A DNA stretch of 64,000 nt, from sequence record PZ402305.1; one strand, given 5' to 3'. The stretch's first letter is position 1; each line of letters begins with the position of its first letter. This document shows positions 4,712 through 62,613 of this stretch, one piece after another. The DNA comes from a phage. A program made the position numbers and the translations under genes. The notes under the pieces were generated by a model. That model ran no database searches. It was not told the DNA's origin and worked only from the letters and a program-made list of their open reading frames with translations.

Positions 4712-4721
4712 GATTATACAA

Positions 4722-4748
4722 GGGGCGCACCAAGCGCCCTTTCTTTTT
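4722..4748 (+). terminator. rho-independent terminator
   Basis: GGGCGC-accaa-GCGCCC stem-loop followed by TTTCTTTTT. Confidence 0.7.
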
Positions 4749-4749
4749 G

Positions 4750-6360
4750 CCCGAATAATGTTGATAGATTCCGCCTATGGAAAACCGACACAGAACAAAA
4801 CTGAATAAATAGCGGTATCGAGCTAATCAACCATTAAACGAATAACCATACCTCCCAGGGTAACAGGCTGTTAGAGAGCCATTTAGAGCGGTTAAAATCG
4901 ATCAACAACCAACAAAAAACCATCAAAAACACCCTTTTACCTCCTTTCTAGTGCAATGATAACCATTATCATCTATCCATGTTTATCTATGCAATATAAG
5001 TGCATAACTATAATGTTGATAATAGTTCGCAACAACTAACTAACCAACAACCTAAAACAATAAGCAAACTAATCATAATCAAAGGAATAATAGCAAGATG
5101 ATTGATAACGACAAACAATCAAACCATGATGAATACTAAGCAAGATAACGATAACACGACAAAACAACCAACTAACGAACAATAACAAACGAAACCATTA
5201 AAATAATAACTATTAGCAAAATAGTGCCTGAATGAAATCATTACAAAACGAATCATTCACAGGATCATCATTAGCACGCTATGCCGGACACATAGCGAGC
5301 TAATAATAAGCCAACTACACCCCAACAATCATAACCATCGGTGATGGTTATTTCTTGTTACTGCGTAGCTTGCAATAATTGCAAGCGTAATACGCTTACA
5401 CTTATTGCGCTGGCTTATTATTAGCATTATATGTAATTACCAAGATCATAACATTAGCGCAATAACAATAATCATTGTGGTAATTACAAGATGAAATAAT
5501 CGCTATCGCTCAAAGATCATTAGCAAGATGAATAATTGCACGTAGCAACATGAGCGAATAGCGACAGGTTGCATAGTGTGCACATAGATGTACACGTAGT
5601 GTATAAACATACAGGAAAATAAAGGCTAATCTTTTGGGGGCGAATACTATCGCGTAGCGATATGTTGAGCACTAAGAGAAGAGATAAACCTTAATCATGG
5701 GGGCGTAAATATCCGCAGGATTGCCAACGGCGATCCGGTAGGATGTTGAGCATCTTCTCTTAAACGTAAATAAAATCAGAAAATTCTTGATTTATTTTAG
5801 TTTTTATGTTAATAAACGTTTAAATAATAATCATTCTCATATGAATAATAGTCTGCTTGTCATGAGCGGGATCAGTTGACAATGTTCCGTCATATGATGA
5901 AGTTGCCAAACCATTGATAAATAAGTGTTTGTGTGATTTATAATCAAGTGGCCCACCTTGTCGCTATGTTGGCATGAGCCTTGCATAAGTCATTGAATAC
6001 GAATGATAATTATTCTCATTCGCATGATATTTGAGAATTGTCGCTGCGTGGACCTGACGGCCCGAAAATTCGCGTTAAGCACTTCTTACGTATGCGCCAT
6101 GATTTTTGCCATATGATATTGATTCTATTAGATATTCTTGCCATGATTGCCATGAAACAGGGTGTCCCGAAATAATCTCTCCCCGTAGATATTTTGGGTT
6201 ACTTTTTATACAAGAGTGGGGTGTCAAAAATAATCGGTATATATGGGATAATTGATAGGAATCCCCTATGATAATTCGATTGTAATTCCCTGAGATTGAT
6301 CGTATGATGTTGGTGATTGATGATTGCCATGAAAGATGGCTAACAATGAGAGGAGATTAT
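4750..6360. other. 1.6 kb ORF-free, repeat-bearing non-coding region
   Basis: No ORF of 60 aa or more on either strand; C+A-rich top strand at 4750-5550; short direct and inverted repeats at 5600-6340. Confidence 0.5.
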
Positions 6361-6361
6361 C

Positions 6362-14089: not shown

Positions 14090-15979
14090 TGGCTGCTTAT
14101 AATTGGTATGAACTTGAAGCTGTTTGTCAGTTTTATGACTCAATAGTTCTGCGTGATCCAATCTGTCAAGAATTGAGTCGCCGTGCAAGTGCATTGGCAA
14201 TCCGTGTTAAAATAAACGGTTGGAACGCAGATTTGGAAAAAGAGTTGGAATTTCTCTTAGAAAACACGCGGGTCTTCCGCAAAGTGTTCCCTGAATGGTT
14301 TGAGATGGAAGAATGATCATGTGGATTGTGCGTCTTAAGTATGATGGCCCTAATCCTTGGGTGAGAACAGTTTGCGGATGTGATACTAAAGAGTCAGCAG
14401 ATAAAGCTGGAAGAATGATAAGTGCCTTTTATAATAGTAAACCTCTTTGTTTAGAAATGTCTGGTGTGGTTTGTATGAGCATGTTCGAATACTACTCTTA
14501 TGAGATCAAAGAACACCAAGGGGAATGGAAATAAATAGTTGACAGAAGGATCTGTCTTTGTCATAATCATCTCATCGAAACAAAGAGGAGAAAATCATGA
14601 AAAAGTTTATTTGCACCCGTTCCACTAACAGTGATATCCTTGTAGGTAAGGTTATCAAAGGAGAACTCTTCCATGCAAACGGTAAGAAATATATTTTGCT
14701 GAAAGATTCTTTCAACGGGGAATATCCGCGCTGCACTTTCTTCAATTACAACACTCCATTTGCTTTAGAAGGAGATGCTTGGGACTGGGCTGAACTCAAT
14801 CCTTGTTGTGAGGAAGAAGAATCTATGTTCTTGGGTTTAAACGTTTACCGTGTAGATTACACCATGTGCGGAGCGGAACATTCTGTTCGCGTAGAAGCCG
14901 AATCCAAACTACAAGCACCTTTCAAGGCGGGATTGACTTTGGGTCATTGTTTGGCAAACATTGAAGATGTTGTGATCCAAAGGGTTGTTTTAGAGAAAGA
15001 GGCTATTTGAGAGAAGACGGCACAATATTTAAATATAAAGATTAACCACAAAGGAGATAGATATGCAAGTTGAAGACCTGATCAAAATTTTGAATGAAGC
15101 CAAAGAGAAAGGTGCTATCAAAGACTGGAAACGTGAAACAAGTGAAGATCTATCTCACTGTTGCCGAGAATTTTACATCGAAGGTATTGCTGACGATCAT
15201 TATATTATCGAATGGTATATCAACTTAATGACTCTTAAGCACGGTTCGTTTGAGGTTTGGTTTGATGACATTGATGTAAATGGTTTTCATCCTGGCTATA
15301 AAATCGCTATGCAGTTATCTTATCGTAGAGAAGTTGTAGCACATTTAGGTTTACATAACTAAGGAGAAAAGAATGCAAGCAGTTGTTAACGAAGCTATTA
15401 TGAACTTATCCTTCTTGTTAGCTGGTTTAGGAGGTGTTCTCATAGGTTTGGCTCTTATCTGGTGTATTCGTCGATTAATCGGGTACCGACAAAAAGGTGT
15501 TTCATGTTTTGTATCTTACAATTTTACAACTGCTTACAGCAATGAAGTTGGATCTGGCAATGCTCAAGCATTTTTACCAACATATCCTCCTACGGTGGAA
15601 GATATTCGAAACTTGGAAGTAGAACTTATGGGACTAAGTGATAACTATACATCTCTAGTTATTCAAAATATTTTTCGACTAAAACAGGAGGCGTGAATGA
15701 AGGTACATTACCCTCATCCATTTGATCCTAAAAACAAAGCCGTAATTCTTCGTCAGTGGCAACGGGTTTGTCGTACTAAATGTCCAATCAATAGCCCACA
15801 CAATGTAGACAAGGACTATCTTGGGACATTTGTTGAATACACTTACATAGACAAAAACAAGCGTAAACAACATGTCGAGGAATACTGCTTAAGAGTAGAA
15901 TGGCTGTAAATAATAAATACCTTGACAAGTGTTTATTCGTTTTGTAAAGTGAGAATACAGCAATGGTTTAGGAGTGGTT

Positions 15980-16651
15980 ATGAAAAAGTTTGTTGTTTAC
16001 AGTCGTCTTTCTAAACAGAAAAAAGGTGAGGCACAATATGGTATGGAGAGCCAAGAGAATGATATCCGTTACTTCTTAGACTCTGTGCCTGATGCGGAAG
16101 TTATTGGTCAATTTTCTGAATACTATTCGGGTAAGGGCGATTGGAAGCAACGTAAGGAACTGGTTAAAGCGGTTGAAATGTGTAAAGCTACCGGAGCAAC
16201 TTTATTGGTAGCTAAAGTTGACCGCTTGGGTCGTAATAACGCCTCCGTAGCAACTCTTCTAGAAATGATTGATGTTAAGATAGCCATCATGCCAGACGCA
16301 GATAAAATGGTTATACAGCTTCTGTCTGTTCTGGCTGAACAAGAAGTTAGAGGTATTGCTGATCGTATTAAAAAGGGTCTTGCTGTAGCAAAAAGCAAAG
16401 GTGTTTTATTAGGCAGTGCCAATCCTAAAACTGCCGCTGCACGTAGAAAAGGAAAAATGGAATACAACTCTGTTAAAGCAGACGCTTTTGCAGAGACATT
16501 CCGTGAACGCTTGGAGATCCTTAGAGATTTAAATACACCTTACAAAACTATTGCTGAAAAATTCAATAGTAAGAAAATAGCAACAGCACGTGGTGGTAAA
16601 TGGGATGCTAAAACTGTTTCTCGTTTGTGTGCCAGACTGAACATTAAATAG
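15980..16651 (+). CDS. serine recombinase (resolvase/invertase family) with C-terminal HTH
   Basis: VVYSRLSKQ (catalytic Ser motif), LLVAKVDRLGRN, C-terminal TIAEKFN...ARGGKW; TTGACA-N17-TAAAGT promoter upstream. Confidence 0.6.
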   Translation: MKKFVVYSRLSKQKKGEAQYGMESQENDIRYFLDSVPDAEVIGQFSEYYSGKGDWKQRKELVKAVEMCKATGATLLVAKVDRLGRNNASVATLLEMIDVKIAIMPDADKMVIQLLSVLAEQEVRGIADRIKKGLAVAKSKGVLLGSANPKTAAARRKGKMEYNSVKADAFAETFRERLEILRDLNTPYKTIAEKFNSKKIATARGGKWDAKTVSRLCARLNIK

Positions 16652-19457: not shown

Positions 19458-19953
19458 AAGCTTTTGCTGTATACTCTACTGTAGGATTCTTTTATTGGAT
19501 TATAGTTGTTGTTGGATGTTGGTTGGGTTCTTCTGTTGTGATGGGAGAATGGTTAACATACAATGTATTTGAATGGGATGTAGTTTGTAGATCATTACTT
19601 GTTATATGGACTGCTATTGTTTGTTGGATAACTGTTAGTCTAACATTAGATCTATATTGATTAATAGATGGTAGATAGATGATCATAGTTTATCTACCTT
19701 CACTTACGTTTCATACCTCACTATCGTGAGTAACATGAAACATTATTATATAGAAATCTACTACTCGCTATCGCTCGTAAACATATGTTTAGGGTACCAT
19801 ATTTTTTTGAAAAAGTCAATGCTGACTCACCTATCAATTATCTGTTTAAGATAAGTCTTACCTATCAATCTAACTCTTAACTAGTATTGTACCTATAGTA
19901 AGACTATTCCTATAGTTATTAACCATCTTCTTCTGTAGAATGTAATTAGATCC

Positions 19954-19983
19954 TTGACAAACTCACAAAGCTTGTGTTACATT
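19954..19983 (+). promoter_or_regulatory. sigma70-type promoter with extended -10 (TTGACA-N18-TGt-TACATT)
   Basis: Hexamers read directly; precedes ATG at 20021. Confidence 0.45.
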
Positions 19984-20470
19984 GTGTCTCACAGGTGAAT
20001 AATACCGAACAGGAGGAAGAATGAGTTCCAATTTTCTATACAAAGCAAAAGATTCACGAGATGGAGAGAACCATTGGTGGTTGATCACAGTAGATGGTGT
20101 TATCATCCTACCGTGGGACGGAGAGACGAAAGTTCAAATACTAGAGAAAGTAAAAGGTGTTAGTTTTAATGTTAGTCATGACATAACAACTTTCAAAGCT
20201 TTTGCTATGAATCCTAGTCTTGTTGCTGAATGGTAATCCAGGAGAAAATATGACTAAAATGTATGCAGCCGTTGATAAGCTGGATGGGTCTGATTCTGTT
20301 TTTATTTTGAATAAAATGGGTGTCTTAGTTTATGCCCGAACTTCTCAAAACATAGAGCACCAAGTGGAAGCAGCGCAAATTTTAGAGCAAATAACCCCTC
20401 CATACCTATATTCAAATGTTGAGCGTTTTAACGATGCACTTGGTCTGACATTAATAGCGGAGTGGTAATA

Positions 20471-58792: not shown

Positions 58793-59116
58793 CTAATTAG
58801 TGCTATCATCTTTAACCACCTCCAATTGCCTTTCGAGTTTGACTTTGTTTGAGAACTGATAATGACACAACTTACATTGCATGTCAACAATCTGATCGTG
58901 ATTTAACCCTACAATTTTAACTTCCTTTGCACCATCCCACTCCAAATACTCAAAGTCATCCAAATGATTACTCTTGTCCAACAAGAATGCTATCTGCTGC
59001 CATTCGATCTGAATGTCATTTAAATGATATGCTGCACAGAAGATATCTTCATAGTAAAAGACGATCATTGTCATTGCTTCGTCCAGTACAACTACCTCTT
59101 GTCTTGTAAATCTCAT
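58793..59116 (-). CDS. hypothetical protein, first gene of the minus-strand train
   Basis: AGGAGG RBS; upstream is the divergent control region. Confidence 0.5.
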   Translation of the reverse strand: MRFTRQEVVVLDEAMTMIVFYYEDIFCAAYHLNDIQIEWQQIAFLLDKSNHLDDFEYLEWDGAKEVKIVGLNHDQIVDMQCKLCHYQFSNKVKLERQLEVVKDDSTN

Positions 59117-59597
59117 TCTAGCCTCCTAAACGCGTCTCTGACGCACTTTTTATATATAAGATGATAAATCACCTTACCTAGTAAGTAAACTTGCTCTACG
59201 AGCCTCTTATGAAGCTTATGTTATAAGCTATACTATTGCTACCTGTTTAAGCAAGGTTTTGCACACAGAAAATAATTTTTAATAAAACTCTTGACTTTTG
59301 TGTTCGAAGTATGCTACCCTAGAAATCTATTAACGAGCGCAGCGAGTTAAGGTTTTAGGTTGTTGATGTAGTACTCTGTACTCAAGTACTGTACTCCGTA
59401 CTAGATTAATAATTATTAAATATTAATAATAAATAATTACTAGATCTAACAAACAGGTACAGTGTATCAGAACTGGTACGTACAGATCAACTTCTATCGA
59501 TTAAAAAATAAAATAATAAATTATTATAAATAATACTTGATCTATAGATCAGTATGAAGTACAGTACGTAACATCTTAACAAGAATGGAGGTGTGCA
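59117..59597. promoter_or_regulatory. divergent intergenic control region with GTACT repeats and AT-rich palindromes
   Basis: Five GTACT copies at about 59371-59402, palindrome TTAATAATTATTAA, GTACAG repeats; lies between divergent gene trains. Confidence 0.45.
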
Positions 59598-59820
59598 ATG
59601 ATTAGTGAGAATCCGTGCAAATGGCATCATGTGCCTATTAAAGATTGTATGTCTTGTAATCCACGTTCTATTTATAACATTACATCTTATGATGATGACA
59701 ATGTGTTAGACGATGATGAAGGCTGGGAGGATTTGGATTGGACTGGTTATGAAACCAAAAAGGATAAAATTATTCCTAGTTGACTTAAGATATCCTTCGT
59801 GCTAAACTAGAAGTGAGGAG

Positions 59821-60574: not shown

Positions 60575-60646
60575 TGGCCCTGTAGCTCAATGGGAGAGCT
60601 GTCGGCTCATAACCGATAGGTAGCTGGATCGAAACCAGCCAGGGCC
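60575..60646 (+). tRNA. tRNA with CAT anticodon, tRNA-Ile2 (lysidine)-like
   Basis: Acceptor GGCCCTG/CAGGGCC, loop CTCATAA, encoded CCA; resembles bacterial tRNA-Ile2. Confidence 0.7.
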
Positions 60647-60651
60647 ACCAA

Positions 60652-60723
60652 CGTCTTTATGGTGTAATGGATAGCACAGGAGTCTTCTAAACTCTTAGTC
60701 AAGGTTCGATTCCTTGTAAAGAC
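60652..60723 (+). tRNA. tRNA-Arg (TCT)
   Basis: Acceptor GTCTTTA/TAAAGAC, loop CTTCTAA, T-loop TTCGATT, CCA. Confidence 0.7.
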
Positions 60724-60775
60724 ACCAGAACATTTTAACATGAATTAGCTCAAGTGATTTGAACCCACTACTGAT

Positions 60776-60896
60776 CATGGTGGCAGAGAATGAGGCAAGT
60801 ATGTCAGACATTATAAACAAAGGCCACGGTTATATTAGAAGACATAAATGCTCGAAGAGCACCGTTCGTGGAGAACGGGGGTTGGTGGAGTCACCA
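60776..60896 (+). ncRNA. second candidate structured RNA (about 120 nt)
   Basis: ATGGTGGC at about 60776 pairs with GTCACCAT at about 60889; track ORF 60759..60950 here is probably spurious. Confidence 0.3.
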
Positions 60897-60961
60897 TTCA
60901 TGGTAAAATGTTTTAAAAAACTATTGACAACAAACCTTATTTTATGTTAGATTATAAGTAT

Positions 60962-61049
60962 GGAAGGGCAAATCGACGTGGCGACGAAAACGGTCTTGAA
61001 AACCGCCGAGCTTGAAAGAGCCTTGGGAGTTCGACTCTCCCTCCTTCCG
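60962..61049 (+). tRNA. tRNA-Ser (TGA), type II
   Basis: Acceptor GGAAGGG/TCCTTCC, loop CTTGAAA, long variable arm, T-arm GGGAG-TTCGACT-CTCCC, G73, CCA. Confidence 0.7.
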
Positions 61050-61056
61050 CCAGATT

Positions 61057-61139
61057 GGTAGATTGGTGAAATGGTAGCCACGACAGTTTGCTAAACTGTA
61101 GTCGGAAACGGCGTGTAGGTTCGAGTCCTACATCTACCG
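61057..61139 (+). tRNA. tRNA-Ser (GCT), type II
   Basis: Acceptor GGTAGAT/ATCTACC, loop TTGCTAA, long variable arm, G73, CCA. Confidence 0.75.
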
Positions 61140-61273
61140 CCAAGTTCTTTTTAATATAGCTTACTTTAATAGAGTAAACTTTCGGCAGATGGCCCCCCAC
61201 CATCTTACCGATAACTCATAGTTAGTGGTGTGAACACTGGCTATCTTAAAAAGAATTTAAATATTAGTATTTA

Positions 61274-61358
61274 GGTGAGTTAATTCCGTAGGGGTAGCGG
61301 GGCAGACTGTAAATCTGTTATCATTGCGATTCGGGTGGTTCGACTCCATCACTCACCA
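61274..61358 (+). tRNA. tRNA-Tyr (GTA), type II
   Basis: GGTGAGT...GCAGACTGTAAATCTGT...ACTCACCACCA; close to the bacterial tRNA-Tyr pattern. Confidence 0.8.
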
Positions 61359-61367
61359 CCAAATTAA

Positions 61368-61450
61368 GATGAGTTGGCTGAATGGTTTAAGCGGCGGACT
61401 GTTAATCCGTGTTCGAAAGAACGATATAGGTTCAAATCCTATACTCATCG
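61368..61450 (+). tRNA. type II (Ser-like, G73) tRNA whose canonical fold gives anticodon GTT (Asn)
   Basis: Acceptor GATGAGT/ACTCATC, 3-bp D-stem, loop CTGTTAA between GCGGA/TCCGT, GNRA-capped variable arm. Confidence 0.45.
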
Positions 61451-61532
61451 CCAGAATTATGGACTTGTAGAGTTAAGGTAAACCCCCAGTCGCCAAGAGG
61501 CTTCTGGAATTGCAGGTATCGAATCCTGCCGA

Positions 61533-61604
61533 GTCCCAGCTTTGCTCCTATAGTATAATGGCTATTACAACGGTTTTGTAATCCGTGGATCTCTGTTCGA
61601 TTCA
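61533..61604 (+). tRNA. tRNA-Thr (TGT)
   Basis: Acceptor GCTCCTA/TGGGAGC, loop TTTGTAA, T-arm CTCTG-TTCGATT-CAGAG, CCA. Confidence 0.7.
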
Positions 61605-61931
61605 GAGTGGGAGCACCAACACAACATTAAGGGCACTGTGATTGATCGTCGTATCCTGTGCACAAGGTCTGTTCGAAAGACAGTGTTCTTAGTATTGTGT
61701 TGATCACAAAAAGAGTCACCTGAAACTTGACCGGAGTAGGGTTGGATGGGGTAAAAGAAGAAGCGGCTCTCCCATCGACAGCAACGAAGAATAATATTTG
61801 ACTTTGGTTTTGTATTATTTTAAGTTAGCTTACCGAACGTAGGGCTAGTCACCCAAAGGGATACTCGTCACTGTCCCACTCAATAAAACTATTGACAACC
61901 AATAGTAAAGTGTAGTATAGTAAAGATGTAG

Positions 61932-62002
61932 GGCGTTCTTGGTGTAGCGGTAGCATTCCGTCCTTCCAAGTCGGCGGCACGAGTTCGATCCTCGTAGAAC
62001 GC
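61932..62002 (+). tRNA. tRNA-Gly (TCC)
   Basis: Acceptor GCGTTCT/AGAACGC, loop CTTCCAA, T-arm ACGAG-TTCGATC-CTCGT; D-arm weak. Confidence 0.55.
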
Positions 62003-62103
62003 TCCAAATTATTTAATAAAGGGTTGCCAGAAAACTTTCTCTTTTACTCATGGTTTTCTCCTTCTCTCACACCTCTTCTGGTTGCCCTTCATTAAATGAT
62101 TTA

Positions 62104-62176
62104 TTGGTTTGTAGTGTAGTTAGGTAGCACACGACACTTTGACTGTCGTAGGTTTGGTTCAAATCCAGACAGACCA
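62104..62176 (+). tRNA. tRNA-Gln (TTG)
   Basis: U1:A72 and G73 (Gln identity), stem CGACA/TGTCG with loop CTTTGAC, CCA. Confidence 0.7.
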
Positions 62177-62184
62177 GCCATATA

Positions 62185-62258
62185 ACGGAATTTAGCTCAG
62201 TTTGGTAGAGTGTACGCTTTGGGAGCGTATTGTCGCAGGTTCGAATCCTGCAATTCCG
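62185..62258 (+). tRNA. tRNA-Pro (TGG)
   Basis: Acceptor CGGAATT/AATTCCG, loop TTTGGGA, T-arm GCAGG-TTCGAAT-CCTGC, A73, CCA. Confidence 0.75.
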
Positions 62259-62267
62259 ACCAATTAA

Positions 62268-62338
62268 ATGTTTCGTAGTTCAATGGTAGAACCCACGACT
62301 GATAATCGTGAGACACAAGTTCGATTCTTGTCGAAACA
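62268..62338 (+). tRNA. tRNA-Ile (GAT)
   Basis: Stem CACGA/TCGTG with loop CTGATAA; T-arm ACAAG-TTCGATT-CTTGT; CCA. Confidence 0.65.
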
Positions 62339-62419
62339 ACCAGTTTCCCGTTAGACTTACAGGATAAGAGTTCCACAGCTTATTGTGATGCTGGTTCGAA
62401 TCCAGCACGGGATACCTAA

Positions 62420-62495
62420 TAGCGGGATAGAGGAGTCTGGTCGTCCTCGCCAGTTTCATATGCTGGAGATCATTGGTTCAAATCCAATTCCCGCC
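62420..62495 (+). tRNA. tRNA-Met (CAT), initiator or elongator undetermined
   Basis: D-stem GAGG/CCTC, stem CCAGT/GCTGG with loop TTCATAT, T-arm ATTGG-TTCAAAT-CCAAT, 1:72 mismatch, CCA. Confidence 0.5.
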
Positions 62496-62613
62496 TCCAA
62501 ATATCGCTTGCCAGCGGTATCTTTGAAGACCTTGCCTGGTTCCTTCTAAGATGGAGGGGTGCGACTCCTTAACGCACAATTATAATAAAGCATTTCAAAT
62601 TAACAGTATTTAT

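Follow-up and report, generated by a model that had tools for sequence, protein, structure and literature searches.

The 481 bp gap (59117–59597) between two diverging gene trains of a phAPEC8-like E. coli phage (Phapecoctavirus, ~150 kb) is, on balance, probably the main divergent transcription-control region, built of compound sigma-70 promoters with a leader and UP-like A/T tracts and carrying a GTACT array as an accessory. All positions refer to the window, the whole 64,000-nucleotide stretch that was analysed (record PZ402305.1). A sigma-70-type promoter, P_L (59189–59161), would start the 37 kb leftward train of nucleotide-metabolism and recombination genes, and tandem promoters for the host RNA polymerase, P_R1 and P2b, would feed a small gene, a tRNA cluster and the genes beyond on the right, where the train consists of small genes, tRNAs, terminase and structural genes. 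The first-pass annotation had proposed a divergent control region, and this description stands: the gap lies at the divergence of two long trains, promoter-like sites occur on both strands, and the rightward promoters keep the same position and form across several genera of the Stephanstirmvirinae. The sole ORF overlapping the gap (47 aa, 59487–59630, minus strand) was rejected as coding because indels break it in relatives. A Pfam search of the flanking small proteins gave no matches, and a neighbouring 107 aa protein matched no loci in IMG/VR. By eye, host-factor sites in the region amounted to LexA half-sites only, 160 bp apart, and a best DnaA box matching 5 of 9 positions, with no convincing match for Fis, the ARG box or the oriC 13-mer. 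In the literature on this phage group we found no transcript (transcription start or RNA-seq), footprint, origin or terminus data. The features of the region are listed in the Table.

Table. Features of the divergent gap and its borders (window coordinates; promoters are candidates read from the sequence).
Feature	Position	Strand	Details
Minus-strand gene, ATG at gap edge	58793–59116	-	Left border of gap
Short G+C hairpin GCGTC-TCT-GACGC	59132–59144	.	Between P_L and ribosome-binding site of first leftward gene
Candidate leftward promoter P_L	59161–59189	-	-35 TTTACT 59189–59184, 17 nt spacer, -10 TATCAT 59166–59161
19 nt A/T-only run	59269–59287	+	Fourth longest in genome
Candidate upstream rightward promoter P_R1	59291–59320	+	-35 TTGACT 59291–59296, 18 nt spacer ending TGc, -10 TACCCT 59315–59320
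Hairpin, invariant apex CGAGCGCAGCGAG (59334–59346)	59330–59350	+	Lower stem TTAA/TTAA
TTAAGGT(T) tandem repeat	59347–59360	+	1 to 3 copies among close relatives (alignment A1, columns 249–274)
GTACT array, 5 direct copies	59370–59403	+	Starts 59371, 59378, 59386, 59391, 59398
A/T tract 1, 35 nt	59405–59439	.	Second longest run in window; contains palindrome TTAATAATTATTAA
TAGATCTAACAAACAG, GATC-containing motif	59441–59456	+	Unique in genome; cross-genus form GATCTAACARACA
GTACAGT (59457) and GTACGTACAGA (59476)	59457–59486	+	Resemble -10 elements TACAG(T/A)
A/T tract 2, 36 nt	59500–59535	.	Longest run in window
Candidate proximal rightward promoter P2b	59537–59565	+	-35 TTGATC 59537–59542, 17 nt spacer, -10 TACAGT 59560–59565
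Inverted partial array copy	59551–59569	-	Imperfect inverted repeat with 59384–59402, ~16/19 bases, aligned by hand
Ribosome-binding site GGAGGTG	59587–59593	+	Precedes first rightward gene
First rightward gene	59598–59783	+	61 aa, CxxHH...CxxC and acidic tail
Further candidate promoter TTGACT-17-TAAACT	59780–59808	+	After first rightward gene
tRNA cluster	60576–62496		Downstream of first rightward gene

P_L matches the consensus at 9 of 12 positions in our scan; its site is invariant among 11 Phapecoctavirus genomes, and its spacer core AGGTAAGGTGATT is also kept in phiWec and phi92. The short hairpin downstream of it is followed by a T run on the plus strand, which makes it terminator-like, and is retained in phiWec190 with a one-sided change (GCGTCTCTAACGC). 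P_R1 reaches 8/12 and falls under the scan threshold, so its support comes from conservation and not from its score: TTGAC(T/A)-N17/18-TGCTACCCTA is common to phiWec, phi92, a Klebsiella phage and metagenomic relatives. P2b, also 8/12 and absent from the scan list, contains the palindrome GATCTATAGATC in its spacer, and seven lineages have a counterpart of the form TTGAC(T/C)-N17-TAnAnT ~35 nt ahead of the first rightward gene. Promoter-like sites are not in excess across the surrounding 2 kb (8 found, 7.2 expected from shuffles). Two features of P_R1 are unexplained by a plain sigma-70 promoter, namely the exactly conserved CCC of its -10 element and a self-complementary linker that spans the expected start site. 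Across genera the layout comprises an upstream promoter (TTGACT-N18-TGcTACCCT), the hairpin, a variable stretch and an A/T tract adjoining the second promoter.

The two longest A/T-only runs of the 148 kb genome both lie in the gap (the third is 31 nt and the rest are ≤20 nt), and runs of 35–36 nt are expected ~0.001 times in 64 kb. The AT-rich palindromes singled out by the first-pass annotation are present (TTAATAATTATTAA at 59406, TAGATCTA at 59441 and GATCTATAGATC at 59539), but they are more aptly described as A/T-only tracts that immediately precede -35 hexamers. A/T tract 2 ends 1 nt before the -35 of P2b and covers the UP-element position (~-37 to -72); the 19 nt run, 3 nt upstream of the -35 of P_R1, is likewise in the UP-element position, and both promoters thus have an A/T-rich tract at ~-40 to -60. 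Because these two tracts end 1–3 nt before a -35 hexamer, we take them as putative UP-type upstream elements. An equivalent A/T tract adjoins the equivalent promoter in phi92 and in the Klebsiella phage. Counting against this assignment, tracts of 35 nt exceed the length that a UP element needs. A/T tract 1 with the bases that follow it is a degenerate duplicate of A/T tract 2 with P2b (repeat D1, 59408–59446 versus 59512–59550, 72% identity), and the stretch 59405–59439 is probably the remnant of a local duplication of the unit 'A/T tract plus P2'. Natural deletions bear on these elements. Phage nieznany, a viable isolate, is without ~59462–59529, including one A/T tract and the middle GTAC group, and this segment is therefore dispensable. 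In EP57, a possibly unreliable assembly 20 kb shorter than those of related phages, the -10 of P2b and its leader are missing. That both phages were recovered as isolates argues for redundancy of the tandem elements.

Downstream of P_R1 lies the invariant hairpin CGAGCGNAGCGAG, whose lower stem covaries and which may form at the start of the P_R1 transcript or of the melted DNA. Its apex, made of a C-G pair, tandem G.A pairs, G-C and C-G pairs and a GNA loop, is identical in 18 distinct module sequences. The lower-stem cells are paired in 89.8% of cases compared with 78.9% in shuffles (0 of 500 shuffles reach 89.8%), and one lower-stem pair varies between C-G (11 sequences) and A-U (5 sequences). 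EF1-1 carries three copies of the promoter-plus-hairpin module in its genome; the third, on the minus strand of the window (19819 to ~19670), is followed by conserved stem-loops and is small-RNA-like. A search with Rfam 15 at gathering and permissive thresholds brought only tRNAs to gathering scores in the window, with chance-level matches otherwise and nothing credible in 59100–59620 or 19500–20000. Matches to TACCCTA...GAGCGNAGCGAG in many unrelated viral and metagenome contigs were rejected as homologous modules, their count being of the order expected by chance; most outside matches to GAGCGNAGCGAG belong to an abundant repeat, GTCATyCC-GAGCGNAGCGAG-GrATC, with no module homologues. A terminase-proximal divergent pair in another phage group was also judged unrelated to the module.

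The module recalls the PeSL cassettes of T4-like phages, in which an early-type promoter is combined with a stem-loop (PMC4122927, PMC2839356). As there, a composite of promoter and stem-loop is repeated in a large lytic myovirus genome and conserved across related phages. PeSL stem-loops are terminators, however, and the motifs are numerous and sit in hyperplastic regions; by the description of PeSLs as many promoter and terminator copies flanking variable ORFs (PMC4122927), the module falls short at three copies. It further differs in having its hairpin downstream of the -10 and an invariant 13–14 nt apex. A structural parallel is offered by the d(GCGNAGC) mini-hairpins and by phage N4, whose virion RNA polymerase uses hairpin promoters: the box apex GC-GNA-GC likewise has a sheared G.A pair closing a three-base loop. 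We regard this resemblance as structural and not as homology because the same core occurs in the abundant, unrelated repeat of many metagenome contigs. Unlike the N4 hairpin promoters, the hairpin lies downstream of a sigma-70-type promoter, and we know of no N4-type RNA polymerase in this phage group.

The hairpin also enters an explanation at the RNA level, which we judge improbable. Here the ~270 nt P_R1 leader would fold, its GUAC repeats pairing with one another and with GUACAGUAC 165 nt downstream, and would influence, in cis, how the tRNA-cluster transcript is antiterminated, processed or stabilised, with CGAGCGNAGCGAG perhaps binding a protein or the polymerase; the phage lambda nut and HK022 put elements are the analogues. 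Consistent with this, the 279 nt leader has a better predicted fold than shuffled sequences (z = -2.8, equalled by 2 of 200), a long-range stem is predicted between 59386–59403 and 59550–59567, the stem of the hairpin box covaries, the third module copy resembles a small RNA with conserved stem-loops, and the annotation of ASO2A places a terminator between the small genes and the tRNAs. The array alone, however, folds not significantly better than shuffles (z = -1.6) and is unconserved outside one clade, no Rfam family matches, and no boxA-like element is conserved across genera. Moreover, since the self-complementary linker is located around the expected start site, it may not be part of the RNA at all.

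Five GTACT copies, the GTACAG repeats (59457, 59480 and 59559) and the palindromes noted by the first-pass annotation were all found. Each GTACT of the array holds the palindrome GTAC, and inverted CTGTAC occurs at 59376 and 59389. The array had been described as phased protein-binding sites, a wording that finds no support: the start-to-start spacing is an irregular 7, 8, 5 and 7 bp, with gaps of only 0–3 bp between pentamers, so that the repeats, not being set at a multiple of 10.5 bp, are not helically phased; furthermore, the array is absent from phiWec and from phi92-like and Klebsiella relatives. What distinguishes the region is its density of GTAC. This is the most under-represented tetranucleotide of the window, with 67 occurrences against 175 expected (Markov-2) and 152 ± 13 in dinucleotide-preserving shuffles. 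Even so, 10 of the 67 lie within 197 bp of the region (Poisson P ~7e-15), and all five closely spaced GTACT pairs found in the 64 kb are located here (0.3 expected). In a 99%-identical relative with a complete genome sequence the region forms the strongest GTAC cluster, with 10 sites in 250 bp as against 5 for the runner-up. The array is present in the phAPEC8-type genomes that were aligned and missing from phiWec, a member of the same genus, as well as from phi92, Klebsiella and metagenomic relatives, and is thus best read from the alignments as a recent addition specific to the phAPEC8 clade.

A pattern in one relative, BI-EHEC, bears on the state of this motif. There 72% of GTAC sites are changed compared with 7% for an average 4-mer, and GTACT is changed at 13 of 13 sites. 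These are C-to-T changes, on one strand or the other; half are non-synonymous, and one of them lies within a tRNA gene. This genome was sequenced by ONT only (PMC8686590). Given the genome-wide pattern and the ONT-only sequencing, we attribute the changes to base-calling artefacts, and evolutionary loss as an account of the 9 of 10 GTAC changes within the region was rejected. Miscalling of 72% of GTAC sites in an ONT-only relative in turn implies that the motif is modified, and to judge from these miscalls GTAC is probably chemically modified in the present phage as well. A phage of the Vequintavirinae has been analysed for methylation at GATC and GTAC (PMC12548924). MTase-family genes, homologues of EF1-1 gp68, gp85 and gp185, are present in the phage: none of the EF1-1 genes annotated as MTases matched in Pfam, gp145 proving to be a prohead-protease-like protein, and PHROGs backs two of the annotated MTases as MTase-family proteins.

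The array has a partial inverted counterpart over P2b: AGTACAGTAC (59558–59567) is the exact reverse complement of GTACTGTACT (59386–59395), giving a perfect 10 bp inverted repeat, and the -10 of P2b is overlapped by two GTAC sites. Elsewhere in the genome GTAC overlaps the -10 at only 1 of 83 promoter-like sites, which rules out a general overlap of GTAC with -10 elements; a methylation-switch role is therefore no genome-wide rule. Within the promoter region that we favour, the array would sit inside the P_R1 leader, upstream of P2, and together with the inverted copy would bring ten sites of the putatively modified motif into the control region; it may tune promoter use, by binding a protein or by a difference in modification between parental and newly replicated DNA. 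A stronger form of the latter idea strikes us as unlikely: array, inverted copy and A/T tracts together would be a modification-gated element, at which fully modified parental and unmodified new DNA are read differently. Such an element might be an epigenetic timer for switching the master divergent promoters; or else it might be a replication origin open to sequestration, much as GATC clusters function at oriC and P1 oriR. Unlike these, it would employ a phage-specified modification of GTAC in a genome that otherwise purges GTAC.

The inverted repeat could in principle also act as an invertible promoter switch, with a serine recombinase recombining GTACTGTACT and AGTACAGTAC so as to flip the -35 and spacer of P2b; the flipped form would be an identical promoter facing the leftward genes, with junction GTACTGTACTTCATACTGATC. 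The perfect 10 bp and imperfect ~19 bp repeats do bracket the -35, the spacer and the A/T tracts, a -10 TACAGT can be read in both arms, so that inversion would rebuild the promoter in the opposite direction, and the phage encodes a protein with a Resolvase domain (PF00239, E = 5e-18). But none of 71 related genomes is inverted, a synthetic inverted query matching only at 80–90% identity; much of the inverted repeat is automatic, the repeated motif GTAC being itself a palindrome; and the recombinase gene lies ~40 kb away, with no typical 26 bp crossover sites recognised. In view of the 71 genomes without an inverted variant we rejected this model, which we hold to be scarcely credible.

Repeats, A/T tracts and a conserved promoter are also the ingredients of a transcription-activated replication origin, a reading that we regard as possible though doubtful. 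P_R1 would provide the activating or priming transcript, the A/T tracts would unwind, and the modified GTACT repeats with their inverted copy would bind an initiator or gate firing. Such an origin would be compatible with promoters in the same region. The two longest A/T-only runs of the genome would supply an easily melted element; the conserved promoter lies ~80 bp upstream of A/T tract 1, which the pentamer array adjoins, and beyond which the inverted partial copy lies; the window's cumulative GC skew has its minimum at 58–60 kb; a T7-type primase/helicase and a Pol I-type polymerase are encoded, according to the annotation of a close relative; and no origin has been reported for this phage group. 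However, gene orientation switches at the skew minimum, which is therefore not independent evidence, the same confounding of skew by transcription direction having been reported for rV5 (PMC3606486). Conserved initiator repeats are lacking, in that the array is missing from a sister clade of the same genus and from other genera, and nieznany dispenses with one A/T tract and the middle GTAC group. The A/T tracts are locked to -35 hexamers in a UP-like manner, no initiator gene was identified adjoining the region, and a 1.65 kb ORF-free, A-rich region at 4712–6361 is an equally good origin candidate.

At the pac site of phage P1 the terminase cuts between clusters of a short methylatable repeat, and a methylation-controlled pac site of this type is a further, very unlikely, interpretation. 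Two groups of the probably modified motif do flank ~150 bp, rV5-like genomes are reported to be permuted, which implies headful packaging, and, as annotated in a close relative, the gene for the large terminase begins ~4.4 kb further downstream, beyond tRNAs and spanin-like genes. Yet the region neither lies within a terminase gene nor adjoins one, close relatives with presumably the same mode of packaging have no such array, a literature search for terminus data on this phage group found none, and none of the deposited genomes is opened in the region with a biological reason given. In the nieznany record the first base falls within the first rightward gene, ~27 bp beyond the right edge of the gap; as the two ends of this record seem to overlap, its start has the look of an arbitrary break in the assembly.

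Phages like phAPEC8 and phi92 are widely isolated for therapy. The present analysis contributes a coordinate map of the putative main divergent control region, with three candidate promoters and their upstream elements, and a promoter-plus-hairpin module that is found three times per genome and subfamily-wide and has no Rfam entry; it also points to GTAC as a probably modified motif concentrated at one locus. An array shown to work as a modification-sensitive switch or origin would be the phage equivalent of Dam-controlled elements, with another motif; failing that, this is an ordinary, though ornate, promoter region.

Both possibilities have familiar parallels. The primary origin of T7 and oriF and oriG of T4 combine a promoter with an unwinding element, and the GATC heptamers of P1 oriR and the GATC 13-mers of oriC are methylated-repeat origins whose firing is tied to their modification state. 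The region resembles these origins in having a promoter upstream of an A/T-rich tract at a transcription divergence and, as in P1 oriR and oriC, five repeats of ~7 bp with a methylatable palindromic tetranucleotide adjoining the tract; it departs from the latter two in that its motif is GTAC where theirs is GATC, and in that its repeats are unconserved in sister clades. The closest match to the promoter reading that we prefer is with the P1 and P2 promoters of the E. coli rrn operons and with strong early coliphage promoters, which are tandem sigma-70 promoters with UP elements. In contrast to these, the phage region has pure A/T tracts of 35–36 nt, longer than a UP element, one of which is a duplicate without a good promoter attached, a non-consensus P_R1 -10 (TACCCT) that is nevertheless exactly conserved, and an array of a probably modified motif between the two promoters. 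Like rrn P1/P2, it has two tandem candidate promoters ahead of a cluster of stable RNA (tRNA) genes, with A/T tracts 1–3 nt before the -35, and the extended -10 (TGn) of P_R1 is a further likeness to the rrn and early coliphage promoters.

The gap between the minus-strand gene train and the first plus-strand gene (59117–59597) is most likely a compound control region for the host RNA polymerase, which would comprise one leftward promoter and, upstream of the tRNA cluster, two tandem rightward promoters, with A/T-only tracts acting as UP-type upstream elements. A sequence search with the gap and its flanks showed that the region is already present, unannotated, in ~70 published Phapecoctavirus genomes (phAPEC8-like E. 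coli myoviruses of ~150 kb, subfamily Stephanstirmvirinae), which match at 95–99% identity. Among the records of relatives, the only annotation within it is an unexplained 'repeat_region' in some Danish isolates, and no experimental work on it was found in the literature. The complete genome of EF1-1 (PQ571289.1), a 99% identical relative, was used for a whole-genome map, which shows that two long gene trains do diverge at the gap, in agreement with the first-pass annotation. The annotation of this record is not to be relied on and several product names are unsupported; gp145, named 'DNA methyltransferase', matches a prohead-protease family, and small ORFs are called 'Gag polyprotein' and 'tail protein'.

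The homologous gaps of phiWec phages (same genus; ~82% identity over the left part of the gap), phi92 and one Klebsiella relative were compared, with additional relatives obtained from viral and metagenome contigs by scanning for sequence patterns. The comparison suggests a common layout of five parts. The upstream and proximal rightward promoters (P_R1 and P2b) score 8/12 each and are unlisted by the consensus scan; the case for these candidates as promoters is their conserved form and position, not their score. The −35 of P2b in the window is TTGATC, and the motif GATCTAACARACA in the variable stretch is unique in the genome. The window contains two long A/T tracts because a duplication (repeat D1, 72% identity) has copied the tract together with the start of the second promoter. 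We read such tracts as UP-type because two of them end 1–3 nt before a −35 hexamer, an arrangement that is the same in distant relatives. The region is plastic, as natural variants show: nieznany is without 59462–59529, and so without the GTAC group in the middle and the greater part of tract 2; EP57 is without the P2b −10 and leader; and a TTAAGGT unit downstream of the hairpin is present once, twice or three times. Phages phiWec190 and phiWec179 of the sister clade (loci L003/L004, 2573–2785) have an extra 70-aa minus-strand gene at the position of window 59190–59260, which marks the left part of the gap as a place where genes are gained or lost.

Features of the gap, copies of the promoter-plus-hairpin module and the EF1-1 gene map (window coordinates unless marked EF1-1)
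Feature	Position	Strand	Form or basis
Leftward promoter-like site (P_L)	59189–59161	−	TTTACT-17-TATCAT; scan 9/12; invariant in genus
Layout 1, upstream promoter (P_R1)	59291–59320	+	TTGAC(T/A)-N17/18-TGCTACCCTA; cross-relative comparison
Layout 2, hairpin 10–20 nt downstream of promoter	59334–59346		invariant apex CGAGCG-N(1-2)-AGCGAG; comparison
Layout 3, clade-variable stretch of 45–140 bp	motif 59441–59456		GATCTAACARACA usually kept; comparison
Layout 4, A/T tract	directly before second promoter		comparison
Layout 5, second promoter (P2b), ~35 nt upstream of first rightward gene	59537–59565	+	TTGAC(T/C)-N17-TAnAnT; comparison
Module copy 1 in EF1-1	in the gap		
Module copy 2 in EF1-1	137.3 kb (EF1-1)		upstream of a gene, other leftward train
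Module copy 3 in EF1-1	19819 to ~19670	−	inside early plus-strand block
Small early genes	0–22 kb (EF1-1)	+	
Ribonucleotide reductase, thymidylate synthase, exonucleases, ligase train	22–59.2 kb (EF1-1)	−	
Gap under study	between minus train and plus train (EF1-1)		
61-aa gene, ~12 tRNAs, spanin-like genes, large terminase, structural genes	terminase at 64 kb (EF1-1)	+	

All motifs that the first-pass annotation listed in the gap are present where it placed them, and their pattern far exceeds chance expectation. No tetranucleotide of the window is more depleted than GTAC (67 sites, where a Markov-2 model predicts 175 and dinucleotide-preserving shuffles give 152 ± 13); GGCC, CCGG and CTAG are likewise depleted. 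Ten of the 67 sites are packed into 197 bp of the gap (P ~7e-15), which contains the densest GTAC cluster of the 148-kb genome and all closely spaced GTACT pairs of the 64 kb. The longest two A/T-only runs in the genome also lie here (tract 1, 59405–59439; tract 2, 59500–59535), and the run at 59269–59287 ranks fourth by length. Calling the five GTACT copies (the array) phased was unjustified, as their starts are spaced by 7, 8, 5 and 7 bp. Conservation in relatives, on which the reading of the repeats as protein-binding sites had in part been made to depend, is confined to phAPEC8-type genomes: the array is absent from the compared gaps of the phiWec clade, phi92-like phages, Klebsiella phages and metagenomic relatives, which have in its place a small number of motifs containing GATC or (A/T/G)TACT words scattered about. 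Its near-invariance within the phAPEC8 type says little, since those genomes are 96–99% identical.

We read the array as an insertion specific to this clade that arrived late and separates the two rightward promoters, and infer that it probably modulates them via a binding protein or its modification state; no genome-wide rule supports such modulation, GTAC lying over the −10 at only 1 of 83 promoter-like sites. A 10-nt piece of the array, GTACTGTACT (59386–59395), has an exact inverted copy over the P2b −10 (59558–59567), and this inverted repeat extends imperfectly to ~19 nt. An invertible promoter is attractive on paper, because inversion between the 10-bp repeats would reconstitute P2b facing left and the phage encodes a serine recombinase, but the inverted form occurs in none of 71 genomes. 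The recombinase of this lytic phage (223 aa; Pfam Resolvase N-terminal domain, E = 5e-18) is encoded at 14948–15619 of EF1-1 locus L059, corresponding to window ~15980–16650.

One relative, BI-EHEC, seems at first sight to be missing 9 of the gap's 10 GTAC sites. Over 50 kb, 72% of GTAC sites differ between BI-EHEC and the window compared with 7% for the average tetranucleotide, and at GTACT all 13 differ. Almost all changes are to ATAC or GTAT (i.e. C-to-T on either strand), half would be protein-altering and one falls within a tRNA gene. This genome derives from Oxford Nanopore reads alone, processed by a base-caller of 2020 (PMC8686590). The differences are explained most simply by a modified base, probably the C in GTAC, that was systematically miscalled; we therefore rejected BI-EHEC as an instance of array loss and regard it as uninformative on array conservation. 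The miscalls also indicate errors in the GenBank sequence of its record (locus L068). Judged from these sequence differences, virion DNA of this phage type probably carries a GTAC modification. Consistent with this, methylation calls have been quantified at GATC and GTAC motifs in the rV5-like phage Bas51 (PMC12548924), and the phage has at least two methyltransferase-family genes (PHROGs), one from a family that is widespread in phages and often annotated as cytosine methylase. Pfam does not recognise the phage's methyltransferase-family proteins.

P_R1 and its hairpin form a module with three copies in EF1-1. The hairpin apex (the box) shows no variation across 18 distinct module sequences, while the stem pairs below it covary; at one pair, 11 of the sequences have C-G and 5 have A-U. 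Paired cells make up 89.8% overall in these 18 sequences versus 78.9% after shuffling, and none of 500 shuffles attains the observed value. The linker from TACCCTA to the box is self-complementary above chance (0/1000 shuffles) and, because the expected start site falls within it, may work at the level of DNA instead of RNA. A role as an RNA leader has modest support, in that the 279-nt leader folds with z = −2.8, but the array by itself reaches only −1.6; an Rfam search returned no family matching the module or the gap. The tip of the module hairpin has the form GC-GNA-GC, as do d(GCGNAGC) mini-hairpins. With other complementary flanks, the same apex forms the core of a repeat that is very abundant across many unrelated metagenome contigs, so the hairpin is a generic, very stable fold, and apex matches outside the subfamily were rejected as module homologues. 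That repeat (core CGAGCGNAGCGAG with complementary flanks, GTCATyCC-GAGCGNAGCGAG-GrATC, often in inverted pairs; loci L069–L188, e.g. L089, L090 and L147) has no relation to the phage module beyond the fold. A family of viral contigs (IMG/VR loci L009–L058, e.g. L009, 2020–2165) contains a striking divergent pair, two back-to-back TATACCCTA-CCCCCCC-AACGAGCGAAGCGAG elements ~100 bp apart directly upstream of large terminase and portal genes, which we judged unrelated to the phage.

The minus-strand module copy, antisense within the plus-strand early gene block, reads TTGACT-17-TGgTACCCT followed by the box CGAGCGATAGCGAG at 19776–19764, then the stem-loops GTTTCAT..CTCAC-GATA-GTGAG..ATGAAAC and GGTAGATA..TCTATCTACC. 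In metagenomic relatives these stems are kept and the sequences differ. Window 19670–19819 is a candidate phage small RNA, absent from Rfam.

The main rival reading of the gap is a transcription-activated replication origin. Four features would suit an origin: an extreme A/T tract preceded by a promoter, an array of short repeats that carry a methylatable word, an inverted copy of the array beyond the A/T tract, and a GC-skew minimum. They resemble the origins of T7 and T4 as well as the repeats that are methylated in P1 oriR and oriC. However, the replication genes are conserved in relatives where the array is not, some of the region is dispensable, and the window has an equally good candidate elsewhere, a 1.65-kb region free of ORFs. 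The skew, moreover, tracks gene orientation, as the rV5 authors likewise found (PMC3606486). The ORF-free region (4712–6361; ~1.65 kb without an ORF ≥50 aa) is A-rich on the plus strand and holds the 100-bp segment with the highest A+T content in the window, scattered 20–26-nt imperfect direct repeats and two inverted repeats of 18–24 nt; a comparable 'non-coding' box appears in the rV5 paper (PMC3606486). As an alternative to the gap, this region may hold an origin, a pac site or non-coding RNAs. A P1-like pac site was also considered for the gap. As a compound promoter region, the gap is of a familiar kind, a divergent promoter with UP-like tracts, made unusual by the concentration in it of a probably modified tetranucleotide that the genome avoids more than any other, by its extreme A/T tracts and by a conserved promoter-plus-hairpin module.
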